From NCBI RefSeq assembly GCF_003334815.1, contig NZ_QOWO01000011.1: 64,000 bases of DNA. The stretch is one strand, 5' to 3'. Source of the DNA: Escherichia coli (GTDB lineage: Bacteria; Pseudomonadota; Gammaproteobacteria; Enterobacterales; Enterobacteriaceae). The notes beneath the pieces were generated by a model. It was not told the DNA's origin. It saw only the letters and a list, made by a program, of their open reading frames with translations, and did no database searches. How positions within the stretch are numbered: the first letter of the stretch is position 1; the number at the start of each line of letters is the position of its first letter. A program made the position numbers and the translations under genes. Below, one piece after another: positions 42,368 to 49,827 of the stretch.

Positions 42368-43273
42368 ATGCGTCGAACGTTTATCAAAAAAGAAGGCGTC
42401 GTCATCACGACGCTGGCCCGTTATTTGTTGGGTGAAAAGTGCGGTAATCGATTGAAAACCATAGATGAGCTGGCAAATGAATGCCGTTCATCCGTTGGCC
42501 TGACGCAGGCCGCGTTGAAAACGCTGGAATCAAGCGGAGCGATACGGATTGAACGCCGTGGGCGCAATGGCAGTTATCTGGTCGAGATGGATAACAAAGC
42601 ATTGCTGACTCATGTGGATATCAACAACGTGGTATGTGCAATGCCCTTGCCCTATACCCGTTTGTACGAAGGCCTGGCGAGCGGATTGAAAGCCCAGTTT
42701 GATGGCATTCCTTTTTACTATGCGCACATGCGTGGCGCGGATATTCGCGTGGAGTGTCTGCTTAATGGCGTGTATGACATGGCGGTGGTTTCGCGACTAG
42801 CGGCGGAAAGTTATCTCACGCAAAAAGGCTTATGCCTCGCGCTGGAGTTGGGGCCGCACACCTACGTTGGCGAGCACCAGTTGATTTGCCGTAAAGGCGA
42901 GTCCGCAAACGTGAAGCGCGTGGGGCTGGATAACCGTTCGGCGGATCAGAAAATCATGACCGATGTTTTTTTTGGCGGTAGTGATGTGGAACGAGTCGAT
43001 CTCTCTTATCACGAGAGTTTACAACGCATTGTTAAAGGCGATGTCGATGCGGTGATCTGGAACGTGGTGGCGGAAAACGAACTGACCATGCTGGGATTAG
43101 AGGCGACGCCGCTCACAGACGATCCGCGATTTTTACAGGCCACCGAAGCCGTGGTCCTGACGCGAGTCGATGATTACCCAATGCAACAACTGCTGCGTGC
43201 CGTTGTAGATAAACACGCCCTGCTCGCCCATCAACAACGGGTAGTGAGTGGGGAACAGGAACCGAGTTATTAA
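42368..43273 (+). CDS. yhfZ: Uncharacterized protein YhfZ (recalled as putative DNA-binding regulator)
   Basis: 301-aa ORF MRRTFIKKEGVVITTLARYLLGEKCGNRLKTIDELANECRSSVGLTQAALK (HTH-like N-terminus); first gene of co-oriented cluster. Confidence 0.85.
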   Translation: MRRTFIKKEGVVITTLARYLLGEKCGNRLKTIDELANECRSSVGLTQAALKTLESSGAIRIERRGRNGSYLVEMDNKALLTHVDINNVVCAMPLPYTRLYEGLASGLKAQFDGIPFYYAHMRGADIRVECLLNGVYDMAVVSRLAAESYLTQKGLCLALELGPHTYVGEHQLICRKGESANVKRVGLDNRSADQKIMTDVFFGGSDVERVDLSYHESLQRIVKGDVDAVIWNVVAENELTMLGLEATPLTDDPRFLQATEAVVLTRVDDYPMQQLLRAVVDKHALLAHQQRVVSGEQEPSY

Positions 43274-43289
43274 ACGAAAGGCATCTGAT

Positions 43290-43652
43290 ATGGAAACCAG
43301 ACTCAACCTGCTTTGCGAGGCAGGCGTTATTGATAAGGACATCTGCAAAGGCATGATGCAGGTCGTCAACGTACTGGAAACAGAGTGCCATCTGCCGGTG
43401 CGCAGTGAGCAAGGAACGATGGCGATGACACATATGGCGAGTGCACTGATGCGCAGTCGCCGTGGTGAAGAAATAGAGCCGCTGGATAACGAGTTGCTGG
43501 CAGAACTGGCGCAATCCAGCCACTGGCAAGCCGTTGTGCAATTGCATCAGGTGTTGTTGAAGGAATTCGCACTGGAAGTTAACCCGTGTGAAGAAGGCTA
43601 TTTGCTGGCCAACCTTTATGGATTATGGATGGCTGCTAACGAAGAGGTTTGA
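43290..43652 (+). CDS. yhfY: Uncharacterized protein YhfY
   Basis: Track ORF trimmed to ATG 43290 giving 120 aa METRLNLLCEAGVIDKDICKGMMQ. Confidence 0.8.
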   Translation: METRLNLLCEAGVIDKDICKGMMQVVNVLETECHLPVRSEQGTMAMTHMASALMRSRRGEEIEPLDNELLAELAQSSHWQAVVQLHQVLLKEFALEVNPCEEGYLLANLYGLWMAANEEV

Positions 43653-43735
43653 AGCTCCCGACAAATCCACGTCGCACAACCTAAATATTCAAAAAAATGA
43701 ATATTTAATTCAAGGAACAGAAACGAGGCAACAAG

Positions 43736-47364: not shown

Positions 47365-47375
47365 AAGGCACGACT

Positions 47376-48680
47376 ATGGATCTGTATATTCAGATTATCG
47401 TGGTGGCGTGCCTGACGGGTATGACATCGCTTCTGGCGCATCGCTCGGCGGCTGTTTTTCATGACGGCATCCGCCCGATCCTGCCGCAACTGATTGAAGG
47501 CTATATGAACCGTCGCGAGGCGGGGAGTATCGCTTTTGGTCTGAGCATTGGTTTTGTGGCCTCGGTGGGGATCTCTTTTACCCTGAAAACCGGGCTGCTC
47601 AACGCATGGTTACTCTTTCTTCCTACCGATATCCTCGGCGTCCTGGCGATAAACAGCCTGATGGCGTTTGGTCTTGGCGCTATCTGGGGCGTGTTGATCC
47701 TTACTTGCCTGTTGCCAGTAAACCAGCTGCTGACCGCGCTGCCGGTGGATGTATTAGGTAGCCTGGGGGAATTAAGCTCGCCGGTGGTTTCAGCTTTTGC
47801 ACTGTTCCCGCTGGTGGCGATTTTCTACCAGTTTGGCTGGAAGCAAAGTCTGATCGCCGCCGTGGTGGTACTGATGACCCGTGTGGTAGTCGTGCGCTAT
47901 TTCCCACATCTTAACCCTGAATCCATCGAAATCTTTATTGGCATGGTGATGCTGCTGGGGATCGCGATAACTCACGACCTGCGTCATCGTGATGAAAATG
48001 ACATTGATGCCAGCGGGCTTTCGGTGTTTGAAGAACGCACGTCACGGATTATCAAAAACTTACCCTATATCGCCATCGTGGGAGCATTGATTGCCGCCGT
48101 TGCCAGCATGAAGATTTTTGCTGGCAGTGAAGTGTCGATCTTCACACTGGAGAAAGCATATTCCGCAGGCGTAACGCCGGAACAATCGCAAACGCTGATT
48201 AATCAGGCGGCTCTGGCAGAATTTATGCGCGGACTGGGGGTTGTGCCGTTGATTGCCACCACCGCGTTAGCAACGGGTGTGTATGCAGTTGCGGGCTTTA
48301 CCTTTGTTTATGCGGTGGGCTATCTCTCGCCGAATCCGATGGTTGCAGCGGTATTAGGCGCAGTGGTTATTTCGGCGGAAGTCTTGCTGCTTCGTTCGAT
48401 CGGCAAATGGCTGGGACGCTACCCGTCGGTGCGTAATGCGTCGGATAACATCCGTAACGCCATGAATATGCTGATGGAAGTGGCGCTGCTGGTCGGTTCG
48501 ATTTTCGCAGCAATTAAGATGGCGGGTTATACCGGATTCTCTATCGCGGTTGCCATTTACTTCCTCAACGAATCCCTGGGCCGTCCGGTACAGAAAATGG
48601 CGGCACCGGTCGTGGCAGTAATGATCACCGGTATTCTGCTGAATGTTCTTTACTGGCTTGGCCTGTTCGTTCCGGCTTAA
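47376..48680 (+). CDS. yhfT: Uncharacterized polytopic inner membrane protein YhfT (putative transporter)
   Basis: 434-aa hydrophobic ORF MDLYIQIIVVACLTGMTSLLAHRSAAVFHDGIRPIL. Confidence 0.85.
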   Translation: MDLYIQIIVVACLTGMTSLLAHRSAAVFHDGIRPILPQLIEGYMNRREAGSIAFGLSIGFVASVGISFTLKTGLLNAWLLFLPTDILGVLAINSLMAFGLGAIWGVLILTCLLPVNQLLTALPVDVLGSLGELSSPVVSAFALFPLVAIFYQFGWKQSLIAAVVVLMTRVVVVRYFPHLNPESIEIFIGMVMLLGIAITHDLRHRDENDIDASGLSVFEERTSRIIKNLPYIAIVGALIAAVASMKIFAGSEVSIFTLEKAYSAGVTPEQSQTLINQAALAEFMRGLGVVPLIATTALATGVYAVAGFTFVYAVGYLSPNPMVAAVLGAVVISAEVLLLRSIGKWLGRYPSVRNASDNIRNAMNMLMEVALLVGSIFAAIKMAGYTGFSIAVAIYFLNESLGRPVQKMAAPVVAVMITGILLNVLYWLGLFVPA

Positions 48681-48691
48681 GGAAGGCACCT

Positions 48692-49827
48692 ATGAAGACG
48701 TTTCCTCTGCAAAGCCTGACGATTATTGAGGCGCAGCAAAAGCAGTTTGCGCTGGTGGATAGCATTTGTCGCCATTTCCCCGGCAGCGAGTTTCTTACTG
48801 GCGGTGATTTAGGCTTAACGCCAGGACTGAATCAACCGCGCGTTACCCAGCGTGTGGAACAGGTGCTGGCTGATGCATTTCACGCACAGGCTGCGGCGCT
48901 GGTGCAGGGCGCGGGGACTGGCGCGATTCGCGCCGGGCTGGCGGCTTTGCTCAAACCGGGGCAGCGTCTTCTGGTGCATGACGCGCCTGTTTACCCGACG
49001 ACACGGGTTATTATTGAGCAGATGGGGCTGACGCGCCTGTTTACCCGACGACACGGGTTATTATTGAGCAGATGGGGCTGACGCTTATTACTGTTGATTT
49101 CAATGACCTGTCGGCACTGAAGCAGGTCGTCGACGAGCAACAACCGGATGCGGCGCTGGTGCAGCATACGCGCCAGCAGCCGCAGGACAGCTACGTGCTG
49201 GCAGATGTGCTGGCAACGTTGCGCGCGGCAGGTGTTCCAGCGTTAACCGATGACAACTATGCGGTGATGAAGGTGGCTCGAATCGGCTGTGAATGCGGCG
49301 CGAATGTCTCGACATTTTCCTGCTTCAAGCTATTTGGGCCAGAGGGTGTTGGTGCAGTGGTCGGCGATGCTGATGTTATCAACCGTATTCGCGCCACGCT
49401 TTACTCCGGCGGTAGCCAGATCCAGGGCGCACAGGCGCTGGAAGTATTGCGTGGTCTGGTGTTTGCGCCAGTGATGCACGCGGTGCAGGCAGGGGTATCT
49501 GAACGGTTGCTGGCTTTGCTTAACGGTGGTGCGGTGCCGGAAGTGAAAAGCGCGGTGATTGCTAATGCGCAGTCGAAGGTGTTGATTGTCGAGTTTCATC
49601 AGCCGATTGCCGCCAGAGTGCTGGAAGAGGCGCAAAAGCGCGGTGCCTTGCCTTACCCGGTGGGTGCAGAGTCGAAATATGAAATCCCGCCGCTCTTTTA
49701 TCGCCTTTCCGGAACGTTTCGCCAGGCGAATCCACAATCAGAACATTGTGCGATTCGCATTAACCCGAATCGCAGCGGTGAAGAGACGGTGCTGCGGATT
49801 TTGCGTGAGAGTATTGCCAGTATTTAA
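48692..49827 (+). pseudogene. yhfS: yhfS (recalled as PLP-dependent enzyme) disrupted by a 50-bp tandem duplication
   Basis: Track shows two ORFs, 48692..49081 (129 aa, ends TRLFTRRHGLLLSRWG*) and 49072..49827 (251 aa from MGLTLITVDF). Deleting one copy of the 50-mer fuses them into one 361-codon frame. Confidence 0.85.
48981..49080. repeat. Perfect 2 x 50-bp direct tandem repeat inside yhfS
   Basis: acgcgcctgtttacccgacgacacgggttattattgagcagatggggctg at 48981-49030 and identically at 49031-49080; tgacgc microhomology at both junctions. Confidence 0.97.

Follow-up and report, generated by a model that had tools for sequence, protein, structure and literature searches.

Organization of the yhf Locus

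In the 64-kb stretch of Escherichia coli DNA analyzed here (the window), seven intact open reading frames on the + strand, yhfZ to yhfT, are tightly packed between a BIME and a REP element. The BIME (42112..42201), composed of two inverted REP units (42112-42145 and 42173-42201), lies between trpS and the yhf cluster, and the REP element (49941..49976) lies between yhfS and frlR. Both were read directly and gave naRNA4/REP matches that are sub-threshold (42106-42142 for the BIME), which agrees with the bracketing described in the initial annotation. The BIME 5' of yhfZ has been listed as an attenuator candidate (PMC2965389). A terminator scan identified an intrinsic trpS terminator, GAAACCGGGGAAACCCGGTTTTTTT (42225..42253, + strand), with a 9-bp stem and a T-run, which shields the yhf promoter region from transcription coming from upstream. 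The sequence yielded no promoter of good consensus for the cluster.

yhfZ and yhfY are 16 nt apart and yhfY and yhfX 83 nt apart. The stop/start overlaps of yhfX/yhfW (1 nt) and yhfW/php (4 nt), and the gaps of no more than 12 bp from php to yhfS (10, 11, and 11 nt), are as first reported. The earlier picture of eight packed, co-oriented genes holds for yhfZ to yhfT but not for yhfS, which is frameshifted here. The genes do look operon-like, but not as one unit of eight: conserved candidate operator sites together with the 83-nt gap indicate two units, yhfZY and yhfXW-php-yhfUT(S).

yhfS (48692..49827, + strand), which encodes a fold-type I PLP enzyme of the gamma family (C-S-lyase-like), is a pseudogene in this sequence. 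It is frameshifted by a 50-bp perfect tandem duplication (48980..49079, + strand), in which 48980-49029 equals 49030-49079 (TRF, 2.1 copies, 100% match, score 212). The stretch is 1136 nt, not divisible by three, and its frame ends after residue 129, resulting in ORFs at 48692-49081 and 49072-49827. A search of 5,426 complete E. coli genomes gave no match to the junction of the two copies; the flanks on either side occur with 100% identity in natural E. coli genomes, and the next 15 kb downstream are 100% identical to K-12 MG1655, C600, and J53. The lesion is private to this sequence. The intact orthologue has a crystal structure (PDB 4J8L), and the profile matches of YhfS are to Met gamma-lyase and cystathionine gamma-synthase, at about 1e-10.

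Protein Families of the Cluster

Profile and domain searches confirm the protein classes named in the initial annotation: one regulator, one membrane protein, two PLP enzymes, a metalloenzyme resembling phosphopentomutase, and a hydrolase of the PTE fold. YhfZ (42368..43273, + strand) is a local regulator with a winged-helix HTH_41 and a YhfZ_C sensor domain (PF14502 and PF14503; NF041241 at 374 bits against a cutoff of 260). YhfX (43736..44899, + strand) is a fold-type III PLP enzyme (Ala_racemase_N plus YhfX-like_C) with a solved structure (PDB 4KBX), and its profile matches are to alanine racemase (4e-4), YggS (2e-3), and D-threonine aldolase (4e-3). YhfW (44899..46125, + strand; PF01676, NF009049 at 742 bits) is a DeoB paralogue, a phosphomutase of the alkaline phosphatase superfamily. 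RefSeq names it "phosphopentomutase"; its scores against two deoB models (146 and 184 bits) are below the respective cutoffs of 341 and 256, and it matches the "proposed homoserine kinase" family of the same superfamily weakly (7e-4). Php (46122..47000, + strand; PDB 1BF6 and 4LEF; NF007373 at 654 bits) is a binuclear-metal hydrolase of the PTE family. Its nearest characterized relatives are phospho-sugar lactonases (NF045706), the phospho-furanose lactonase model giving 104 bits against a cutoff of 630, and the best solved-structure matches beyond Php itself are entries titled aryldialkylphosphatase (E about 1e-38).

Two small proteins that the initial annotation had left unclassified can now be placed. 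YhfY (43290..43652, + strand) is a 120-aa stand-alone PRD domain, a new assignment, by its match to PF00874 (E = 9e-4, with 14 of 17 family members at E ≤ 1e-3); it also matches TIGR03582 at 28 bits. Residues H48, A52, R55, and E101 are invariant and the motif H-x3-A-x2-R is kept. YhfU (47011..47364, + strand; DUF2620) is assigned here a shortened RpiB-like fold in which the catalytic Cys-x-Thr/Ser-Gly motif is retained (invariant Cys52-x-Thr/Ser54-Gly-x-Gly), with only E = 0.16 against Pfam LacAB_rpiB. It has 117 aa vs. about 150 in RpiB, the C-terminal part being missing. YhfT (47376..48680, + strand) is a polytopic membrane protein of PF10797, a putative transporter, which has no structural relative, solved or predicted, outside its own family. 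Partners of YhfT include amidase-like proteins, one fusion among them. A very remote YhfT relative adjoins a PNP_UDP_1 nucleoside phosphorylase-family gene in two contigs, suggesting that at least some members of the family handle another class of substrate.

Conservation and Neighbors of the Module

A genome scan yielded 165 relatives, of which the best 80 loci, spanning Enterobacterales, Vibrionaceae, Sebaldella, Clostridia, and Bacillales, were analyzed by tblastn. YhfZ, Y, X, W, Php, U, and T occur together in nearly all of these 80, in three gene orders, and yhfZ itself was found in almost all. yhfU is directly upstream of yhfT in every one of them, and YhfX is present in every locus with YhfU/YhfT. 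The proteins are 35-90% identical across phyla, with invariant catalytic residues, and contigs carrying YhfT relatives at 27-37% identity still hold PRD, PTE, DUF2620, YhfX-like, and Metalloenzyme genes. The recurrence of the rearranged set in 80 loci from several phyla (the best of 165) places the clustering far beyond chance; the yhf genes are an ancient catabolic module common to distant bacteria. Of 5,426 complete E. coli genomes, 5,060 carry at least 80% of the region. Many Yersinia lack yhfW while keeping YhfU, and Enterovibrio lacks php, so that not every step can be obligatory; yhfS is optional across loci and the most dispensable gene of the cluster.

The neighbors point to the phosphotransferase system (PTS) and to amino sugars. 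HPr or Enzyme I genes, as newly recognized here, close the cluster in two Clostridia, where the HPr gene (92 bits, cutoff 48) and the Enzyme I gene (738 bits) each share nucleotides with the stop codon of yhfW. PTS EIIC genes are located near the cluster in Vibrionaceae and L085, and a NagB gene (262-294 bits, cutoff 237) is directly downstream and co-oriented in three Bacillales. In Enterobacteriaceae, the cluster is flanked by trpS and cysG. Homologs of frlB and frlD adjoin it in four E. coli loci and in none of the 76 others, other Escherichia included. The adjacency to the fructoselysine genes had been taken as a clue to the substrate; because it is confined to some E. coli, this link is unsupported. 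The suggested substrate, a phosphorylated amino sugar or modified amino acid, loses that argument and gains indirect support from NagB, HPr/Enzyme I, and the PRD protein YhfY.

Candidate Operators of YhfZ

Two TTCA-N6-TGAA palindromes (42322-42335 and 42346-42359; span 42322..42359), 24 bp apart, are situated just 5' of the yhfZ ATG, where they may serve autoregulation by YhfZ; boxes at -46 and -22 recur in at least 10 enterobacterial genera. A perfect palindrome, AAATATTCA-N6-TGAATATTT (43683..43706), lies 30 nt 5' of yhfX and is a candidate YhfZ operator for the structural operon. In an 11-genus alignment of the yhfX leader, it is the sole invariant/conserved block of the intergenic region. 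TTCA-N6-TGAA occurs four times in the window vs. 1.27 expected, three of the four being in the two yhf 5' regions. Relative to the rest of the loci, the cluster regulatory regions are 68-fold (Enterobacterales) and 41-fold (Vibrionaceae) denser in the motif, and 77-fold denser in the variant TACA-N6-TGTA in Firmicutes, figures that are inflated by AT-rich intergenic DNA. Enterovibrio loci have neither yhfZ nor the motif. Judged from these patterns, the motif, which marks the promoter regions of yhfZ and yhfX and varies between clades, is described here for the first time as a candidate operator for YhfZ.

Proposed Function and Alternatives

The initial statement that the cluster has no established substrate still stands: no paper giving one was found by full-text literature search, where the matches that were read give no function, and the PDB entries of YhfX and YhfS are still titled "uncharacterized." The module probably serves a nitrogen-containing sugar or sugar acid, imported by a transporter whose fold has no solved relative. 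The best reading is a YhfZ-repressed, PTS-linked operon pair for a compound of the amino-sugar or sugar-amino-acid type. As a whole, the view of an old, horizontally spread, two-unit catabolic locus for a polar nitrogen-containing sugar derivative is tentative, with slightly less than an even chance of being right. The most likely substrate class would be a 2-amino-2-deoxy sugar acid or its lactone, or a related amino-sugar conjugate.

YhfZ would bind the palindromes at PyhfZ (two boxes) and PyhfX (one box) and repress both units until an inducer frees it, and YhfY, through the invariant histidine of its PRD, would couple the locus to the PTS phosphorelay (HPr/Enzyme I). YhfT is the predicted importer and YhfU its obligate partner; the latter, a shortened RpiB type with catalytic Cys, Thr/Ser, and anion hole, may have the imported compound or the phosphorylated form of it as its substrate, with an isomerase of the aldose-ketose type as the likeliest role and a phospho-cysteine carrier as a less likely one. 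Php could open a lactone or ester bond, probably on a phosphorylated substrate, and YhfW could shift a phosphate between hydroxyls. YhfX, the enzyme that is never lost, may racemize, dehydrate, or cleave an alpha-amino-acid-like center, and the optional YhfS may remove or transfer the amino group of a side product. Products would enter central sugar-phosphate metabolism, in Bacillales via the cluster-encoded NagB. No gene for a kinase, EIIA, dehydrogenase, or aldolase belongs to the cluster, so that this reading does not account for the phosphate source or the exit route in E. coli. It also counts against it that NagB, HPr, and Enzyme I are each confined to a few lineages, as do the absence of yhfW from many Yersinia and of php from Enterovibrio, and the nucleoside phosphorylase-family neighbor of the very remote YhfT relative.

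The same PTS signals can be read in another way, in which YhfY-YhfU-YhfT form a new PTS-type group translocator, with phosphate passing from HPr~P via YhfY His48 and YhfU Cys52 to a substrate held in YhfT, an EIIC-like permease of new fold, and the soluble enzymes handling the phosphorylated product. The translational coupling seen in two Clostridia between the cluster and the genes for HPr and Enzyme I, the invariance of both residues, and the strict yhfU-yhfT adjacency in all of the best 80 loci (of 165 relatives) fit this view, as does the coding of no kinase although YhfW and Php have relatives acting on phosphorylated sugars; phosphotransfer between an EIIB cysteine and a PRD histidine is established PTS chemistry. 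It is nonetheless considered unlikely. Equally unlikely is the catabolism of a non-sugar amino-acid derivative, for example a lactone or ester of the homoserine-lactone type or a D-amino acid, with ring opening by Php, racemization by YhfX, phosphotransfer on a side-chain hydroxyl by YhfW, and beta/gamma-elimination by YhfS. The aryldialkylphosphatase matches of Php, the closeness of YhfS to methionine gamma-lyase and cystathionine gamma-synthase and of YhfX to racemases and D-threonine aldolase, and the homoserine kinase match of YhfW point in this direction, and the amidase-like YhfT partners suggest an amide- or ester-bearing substrate. However, YhfW is a full-length DeoB paralogue outside the kinase-like branch, the gamma-family enzyme is the gene most readily lost, and the RpiB-like YhfU, the PRD protein, and the HPr/EI, NagB, and PTS EIIC neighbors are left unexplained.

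Pentose or nucleoside salvage has a still smaller chance. YhfW would then be a true phosphopentomutase (1-phosphate to 5-phosphate), as its RefSeq name implies, YhfU, with its RpiB fold and catalytic motif, would carry out the Rpi-like next step, and the PLP enzymes would act on an attached amino-acid moiety. The two reactions, phosphopentomutase and then Rpi, pair naturally in pentose metabolism, and the PNP_UDP_1 neighbor of the remote YhfT homolog is in keeping with it. On the other hand, YhfW falls short of the curated deoB cutoffs, YhfU lacks the C-terminal part of RpiB and persists without YhfW in many Yersinia, a phosphorylase or nucleosidase is found in none of the 80 core loci (the best of 165 relatives), and E. 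coli has deoB and rpiA/rpiB elsewhere. That the K-12 cluster is a decaying, cryptic leftover that no longer has a function is very improbable. The frameshifted yhfS, the missing consensus promoter, and a literature search that found no reported phenotype would agree with decay, but the lesion is confined to this sequence and many lineages do without yhfS, while the seven other ORFs are intact, the candidate operator sites are conserved, and the retention of the region in E. coli and of the catalytic residues across phyla argues otherwise.

Relation to Known Systems

The EF_0829-EF_0839/AHA_3910-type neighborhood (TIGR03576-TIGR03583: PRD, SFCGS, DUF4310/4311/4312, amidohydrolase, DgaE-family PLP, KDGP aldolase) is to our knowledge likewise uncharacterized. 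It shares with yhf a lone PRD, a small Cys/Gly-rich soluble protein, a membrane protein of unknown family, an amidohydrolase-superfamily hydrolase, and a PLP enzyme. The matches of YhfY to the EF_0829 family TIGR03582 (1.6e-6), of a YhfU homolog to the EF_0830 family TIGR03577 (2e-3), and of YhfS to the MJ0158-type PLP family TIGR03576 (1e-3) are weak but specific, all far below curated cutoffs. The Enterococcus version encodes a glycine-rich SFCGS protein, DUF431x proteins, a metallohydrolase, a DgaE-family PLP ammonia-lyase, and KDGP aldolase (PMC11934601). These are the enzymes expected of a sugar-amino-acid pathway, in line with the best reading above. In contrast, the yhf membrane component is YhfT (PF10797) instead of DUF4310/4311, the hydrolase is of the PTE family, KDGP aldolase is absent, and a DeoB paralogue and a fold-type III PLP enzyme are additional.

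The Salmonella dgaABCDEF system for D-glucosaminate, with a mannose-family PTS, the PLP ammonia-lyase DgaE, and the aldolase DgaF, resembles the proposed yhf pathway in PTS-linked use of a sugar amino acid and PLP-dependent deamination of a phosphorylated 2-amino-2-deoxy-aldonate. It differs in its canonical EIIABCD transporter and RpoN/DgaR regulator and in lacking a PTE hydrolase, phosphomutase, and RpiB-like protein; YhfS and YhfX are outside the DgaE family. The L-ascorbate (ula/sga) regulon, in which PTS uptake is followed by the phospho-lactone lactonase UlaG, offers a parallel in the import and phosphorylation of a lactone, ring opening by a metal hydrolase, and sugar-phosphate rearrangement. 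However, UlaG has a metallo-beta-lactamase fold, UlaABC is a canonical Asc-family transporter, and PLP enzymes are absent. In comparison with RpiB/LacAB, YhfU ends about 30 residues earlier, has other residues in place of the N-terminal Asp-His of RpiB, and is always paired with a membrane protein. The frl system, a neighbor in K-12, is similar to the proposed yhf system in the catabolism of modified nitrogen-containing sugars and in its GntR-type regulator, but it has no protein family in common with yhf, is on the opposite strand, and is adjacent in only part of E. coli.

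Organization and conservation of the yhf cluster

The yhf cluster is probably a repressor-controlled catabolic operon with three unusual features, namely a putative transporter family without structural relatives (YhfT), a partner protein of the RpiB fold (YhfU) and a stand-alone PRD domain (YhfY). The yhf genes and three structures have long been known, and no assigned function for the genes was found in the literature searched. What is new here is that a seven-gene set forms one conserved module across phyla, that DUF2620 can be assigned to the RpiB fold, that the module is linked to the PTS and NagB, and that an operator can be predicted.

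The window is E. coli chromosome; the 15 kb downstream of the cluster are 100% identical to K-12 MG1655, C600 and J53, and the region of the cluster is a 100% match to natural E. coli genomes. Comparison with an annotated genome and an ORF list places yhfZ (42368-43273), yhfY (43290-43652), yhfX (43736-44899), yhfW (44899-46125), php (46122-47000), yhfU (47011-47364), yhfT (47376-48680) and yhfS (from 48692; stretch 48692-49827) on the plus strand. The cluster is preceded by trpS and followed by frlR and frlDCBA, which are on the other strand. The 1-4 nt overlaps and the gaps of 12 bp or less from php to yhfS described in the initial annotation agree with the ORF coordinates, which give overlaps of 1 nt and 4 nt and gaps of 10-11 nt, and the BIME (42112-42201) and REP (49941-49976) elements said to bracket the cluster are both present. 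The gap between yhfZ and yhfY is 16 nt and that between yhfY and yhfX is 83 nt. A strong trpS terminator lies at 42225-42253, and a scan for sigma-70 promoters gave nothing convincing (3 matches vs. 7 expected). A GC-rich imperfect palindrome, ggtcccctcgcccctttggggagagggttagggtgaggggaa, at 49866-49905 closely precedes the yhfS-frlR REP; it seems to resemble the boxC-type repeats that are scattered between E. coli genes. The reading of the cluster as a defense system was discarded, as PADLOC returned no meaningful match.

A genome scan with a 12-sequence YhfT alignment as query (a 52-sequence alignment was too diverse) found 165 loci, of which the best 80 were kept. In nearly all of these best 80 of 165 loci, yhfZ, yhfY, yhfX, yhfW, php, yhfU and yhfT occur together, in three gene orders, with yhfU always immediately upstream of yhfT; yhfS is restricted to Enterobacteriaceae, Sebaldella, Bacillales and Harryflintia. 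yhfW is missing from many Yersinia, and Enterovibrio lacks php, yhfZ and yhfY; the core of YhfU, YhfT and YhfX is never lost. PRD, PTE, DUF2620, YhfX-like and Metalloenzyme genes persist even on contigs whose YhfT relatives have 27-37% identity.

NagB, scoring above its curated cutoff, is encoded co-oriented directly 3' of the cluster in three Bacillales genera, and besides it the only recurrent non-core neighbors across phyla are the synteny genes trpS, gph, rpe, dam, cysG and nir. In two contigs a gene of the HAD sugar-phosphatase type lies 3' of the cluster. In Pluralibacter gergoviae and Enterobacter sp. BIGb0383, both of which lack yhfS, this position is taken by genes for secreted acid phosphatases (e(P4)-family 5'-nucleotidase, PhoC-like; L035:11339-12154 and L038:11341-13044). 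The adjacent fructoselysine (frl) operon had been taken in the initial annotation as a clue to the substrate, a suggestion that synteny contradicts: the cluster lies between trpS and cysG in Enterobacteriaceae, and frlB and frlD adjoin it in only four E. coli loci among the best 80 of 165, so the frl neighborhood is functionally uninformative. In four loci (L004, an E. coli-like contig, and L005, L006 and L014), yhfL/cysG directly follows yhfS and the frl operon is absent. Since some Escherichia thus lack frl after yhfS, its presence next to the cluster looks like an insertion or deletion polymorphism.

Proposed regulation by YhfZ and YhfY

YhfZ consists of HTH_41 and YhfZ_C domains by Pfam, not PF00392, and scores 374 bits with NF041241 (GntR family transcriptional regulator YhfZ). 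A candidate binding site came from a 9-mer, AAATATTCA, present in four copies in the window (0.54 expected), three of them in two yhf 5' regions. It is underlain by the palindrome TTCA-N6-TGAA, of which two copies, spaced 24 bp, closely precede yhfZ (at 42322 and 42346) and one lies within a perfect 24-bp palindrome (43683-43706) 30 nt upstream of yhfX. An alignment of yhfX leaders of 11 genera has no invariant block other than the palindrome. Compared with the rest of the loci, TTCA-N6-TGAA is denser in the regulatory regions of the cluster by a factor of 68 in Enterobacterales and 41 in Vibrionaceae, ratios that are inflated by intergenic AT-richness. A Firmicutes variant with one changed half-site base, TACA-N6-TGTA, is 77-fold denser, with the same inflation, and is situated upstream of yhfZ, yhfY/yhfU and yhfX. 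The motif is absent from the Enterovibrio loci, which lack yhfZ. From these patterns we infer that TTCA-N6-TGAA is probably the YhfZ operator, and that YhfZ probably controls two units, yhfZY and yhfXW-php-yhfUT(S). The two-unit reading agrees with an operon table in which php, yhfS, yhfT, yhfU, yhfW and yhfX are grouped together (reproduced in PMC4448311). Lone distant copies of AAATATTCA (12513-12521) and TTCA-N6-TGAA (5182-5195) within the window are probably chance matches.

YhfY (120 aa) is a single PRD; PF00874 matches the E. coli protein at E=9e-4 and 14 of 17 homologs at E<=1e-3. His48, Ala52, Arg55 and Glu101 are invariant across phyla (H48-x3-A52-x2-R55), surroundings that are typical of PRD histidines that can be phosphorylated. 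YhfY thus has the PRD of the BglG/LicT-type regulators with its conserved histidine; it has neither an RNA-binding (CAT) nor a DNA-binding domain, and no second PRD. No structured RNA target for it was found, Rfam giving only sub-threshold REP-like naRNA4 matches. A riboswitch or antiterminator RNA was likewise rejected, because shuffling the yhfY-yhfX spacer gives sequences that fold equally well (z = -0.74); the hairpin in this spacer makes more sense as a DNA palindrome. A riboswitch paper does list the operon, which serves there as a neighbor label only.

Catalytic proteins

Php is a TIM-barrel binuclear-metal hydrolase of the PTE family (PF02126; NF007373, 654 bits) and was the first phosphotriesterase homolog with a crystal structure (PDB 1BF6; also 4LEF). 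It falls outside the characterized specificity groups, with 104 bits for NF045706 (cutoff 630) and 101 bits for NF041153 (cutoff 500); its only function-specific NCBIfam matches are to phospho-furanose lactonase and organophosphate hydrolase, both well under cutoff.

YhfW has the metalloenzyme core of the alkaline phosphatase superfamily (PF01676) and is a full-length DeoB paralog. It fails the deoB equivalog cutoffs (TIGR01696, 145.8 vs. 341.2 bits; NF003766, 183.9 vs. 256), and the sole NCBIfam model that it passes is that of the YhfW family itself (NF009049, 742 bits). D-S-F-G and D-T-x-x-G-H-x-E motifs can be read directly in YhfW, and we presume that they correspond to those of DeoB. A translation-arrest motif, RAPP(P), is encoded at 46056-46070 (residues about 387-391), about 17 codons before the yhfW stop codon that overlaps the php start; according to PMC12992588, no other protein of MG1655 has RAPP. 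As a regulatory device for php the motif was rejected: it is Escherichia-specific, and therefore probably no conserved device.

YhfX is a fold-type III PLP enzyme with a C-terminal domain of its own (YhfX-like_C); its profile matches alanine racemase at only 4e-4. Its kinship to alanine racemase, YggS and D-threonine aldolase is remote, it scores far below the alanine/ornithine racemase level (Orr, 28 bits; cutoff 480), and its solved structure (PDB 4KBX) is titled "uncharacterized". To our knowledge, all characterized fold-type III enzymes use alpha-amino acids.

The structure of an intact YhfS ortholog has also been solved (PDB 4J8L). YhfS is a PLP enzyme of fold type I, and its closest kin are in the methionine gamma-lyase / cystathionine gamma-synthase / C-S-lyase group: its profile matches methionine gamma-lyase at about 1e-10 over residues 43-240, the PF01053 match is weak, and the best NCBIfam match (41.8 bits; cutoff 666) is below the gamma-family level. 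In the window, yhfS is not the intact eighth gene that it had been taken for. Within its 1136-nt stretch, 50 bp are perfectly duplicated in tandem (48980-49029 = 49030-49079), with GACGC microhomology at the flanks; the resulting frameshift ends the reading frame after residue 129, so that two ORFs remain, of 129 and 251 codons. Apart from the duplication, the sequence around it is identical to K-12. Since none of 5,426 complete E. coli genomes matched a 41-nt probe spanning the junction, the lesion is confined to this sequence; it may stem from a recent mutation, from misassembly or from editing.

YhfU and YhfT

YhfU is a shortened RpiB-like protein (117 aa vs. 148-158 aa in the matched structures) that keeps the catalytic loop. 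The protein has the RpiB fold. In a sub-threshold sequence alignment, C52-N-T54-G of YhfU aligns with the C-G-T-G loop of Clostridium thermocellum RpiB, so that the catalytic Cys and Thr are both present; Cys52, Gly55, Gly57 and Asp33 are invariant in 16 homologs of 35-76% identity, position 54 being Thr or Ser in all 16; and LacAB_rpiB (PF02502) is the second-best Pfam family, at E=0.16, with none of 20 members at E<=1e-3, so that the match is not significant, nor is the domain full-length. We know of no other annotation of DUF2620 as RpiB-like. An EIIB identity is less likely than the RpiB-like one, the EIIB fold with a phospho-cysteine in the first beta-alpha loop not being found in YhfU.

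YhfT belongs to a putative transporter family without structural relatives; its assignment to a known transporter or EIIC fold was rejected, as no structural similarity to a known EIIC family was seen. In two contigs (one at L095:9001-10978), a remote YhfT homolog (27% identity) stands without other yhf genes and is directly followed by a PNP_UDP_1 gene, of the nucleoside phosphorylase/nucleosidase family. This suggests that some branches of the family might transport nucleoside-like compounds. Short amidase-signature-like proteins are paired with or fused to YhfT-type membrane proteins (L090:4771-8708, L091, L061:11347-12378 and AFDB G5HJH7): the ORF lies 3' of yhfT in Sebaldella and 3' of a second YhfT paralog in two contigs, and one AFDB entry shows it as a fusion with YhfT. 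Some clusters have two YhfT paralogs, one with the amidase-like partner and the other with DUF2620.

Possible pathway and alternatives

The substrate class that fits best is a 2-amino-2-deoxy-aldonate or its lactone, because such a compound combines the properties of a sugar with those of a D-type alpha-amino acid. YhfZ would repress both units until an inducer binds, and YhfY would report the status of the PTS via His48. YhfT may import a polar, nitrogen-containing sugar derivative, with YhfU working on the transporter or close to it; an isomerase that uses a cysteine base is the most likely role for YhfU, and that of a phospho-cysteine carrier is less likely. Php could then open a (phospho)lactone or ester, YhfW could relocate a phosphate, and YhfX might act on an alpha-amino-acid-like center by racemization, dehydration-deamination or aldol cleavage. 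Where present, YhfS would dispose of an amino-acid side product, and the products would enter sugar-phosphate metabolism, via NagB in Bacillales. This scheme as a whole, with its inferred catalytic steps, is proposed tentatively, because a kinase and an aldolase are missing and NagB, HPr and Enzyme I are patchy.

Genes of the PTS do adjoin the module. The yhfW stop codon is overlapped by an Enzyme I gene in one member of the Clostridia and by an HPr gene in another, and in Photobacterium, Vibrio ezurae and one metagenomic contig the cluster has genes for a lactose/cellobiose-family EIIC (and EIIA) as neighbors. YhfY, YhfU and YhfT might themselves constitute a PTS-dependent uptake and phosphorylation system, in which a PRD domain and an isomerase-fold protein stand in for EIIA and EIIB, and a related design might be at work in the EF_0829/SFCGS clusters. 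We consider such a new PTS-type translocator unlikely; if it were real, it would represent a new group-translocator family feeding a new sugar-amino-acid pathway. Catabolism of an amino-acid lactone or a D-amino acid is equally doubtful, pentose or nucleoside-type salvage is somewhat less probable still, and it is very improbable that the genes are a cryptic remnant. If YhfT-YhfU did turn out to work by a new mechanism of uptake, a transporter family present in gut, marine and soil bacteria would be gained.

Similarity to the EF_0829-type cluster

Three adjacent families of a conserved neighborhood, EF_0829 (a PRD protein), EF_0830 and MJ0158-type PLP, are matched weakly yet specifically by YhfY, a YhfU homolog and YhfS. 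The order of this neighborhood in Enterococcus faecium is a glycine-rich SFCGS protein, DUF4312, DUF4311, DUF4310, a metallohydrolase, a DgaE-family PLP ammonia-lyase and a KDGP aldolase (PMC11934601). A pathway for a phosphorylated sugar amino acid would be expected to have this enzyme set. Compared with it, the yhf locus has another membrane protein and other enzymes, and looks like a sister design.
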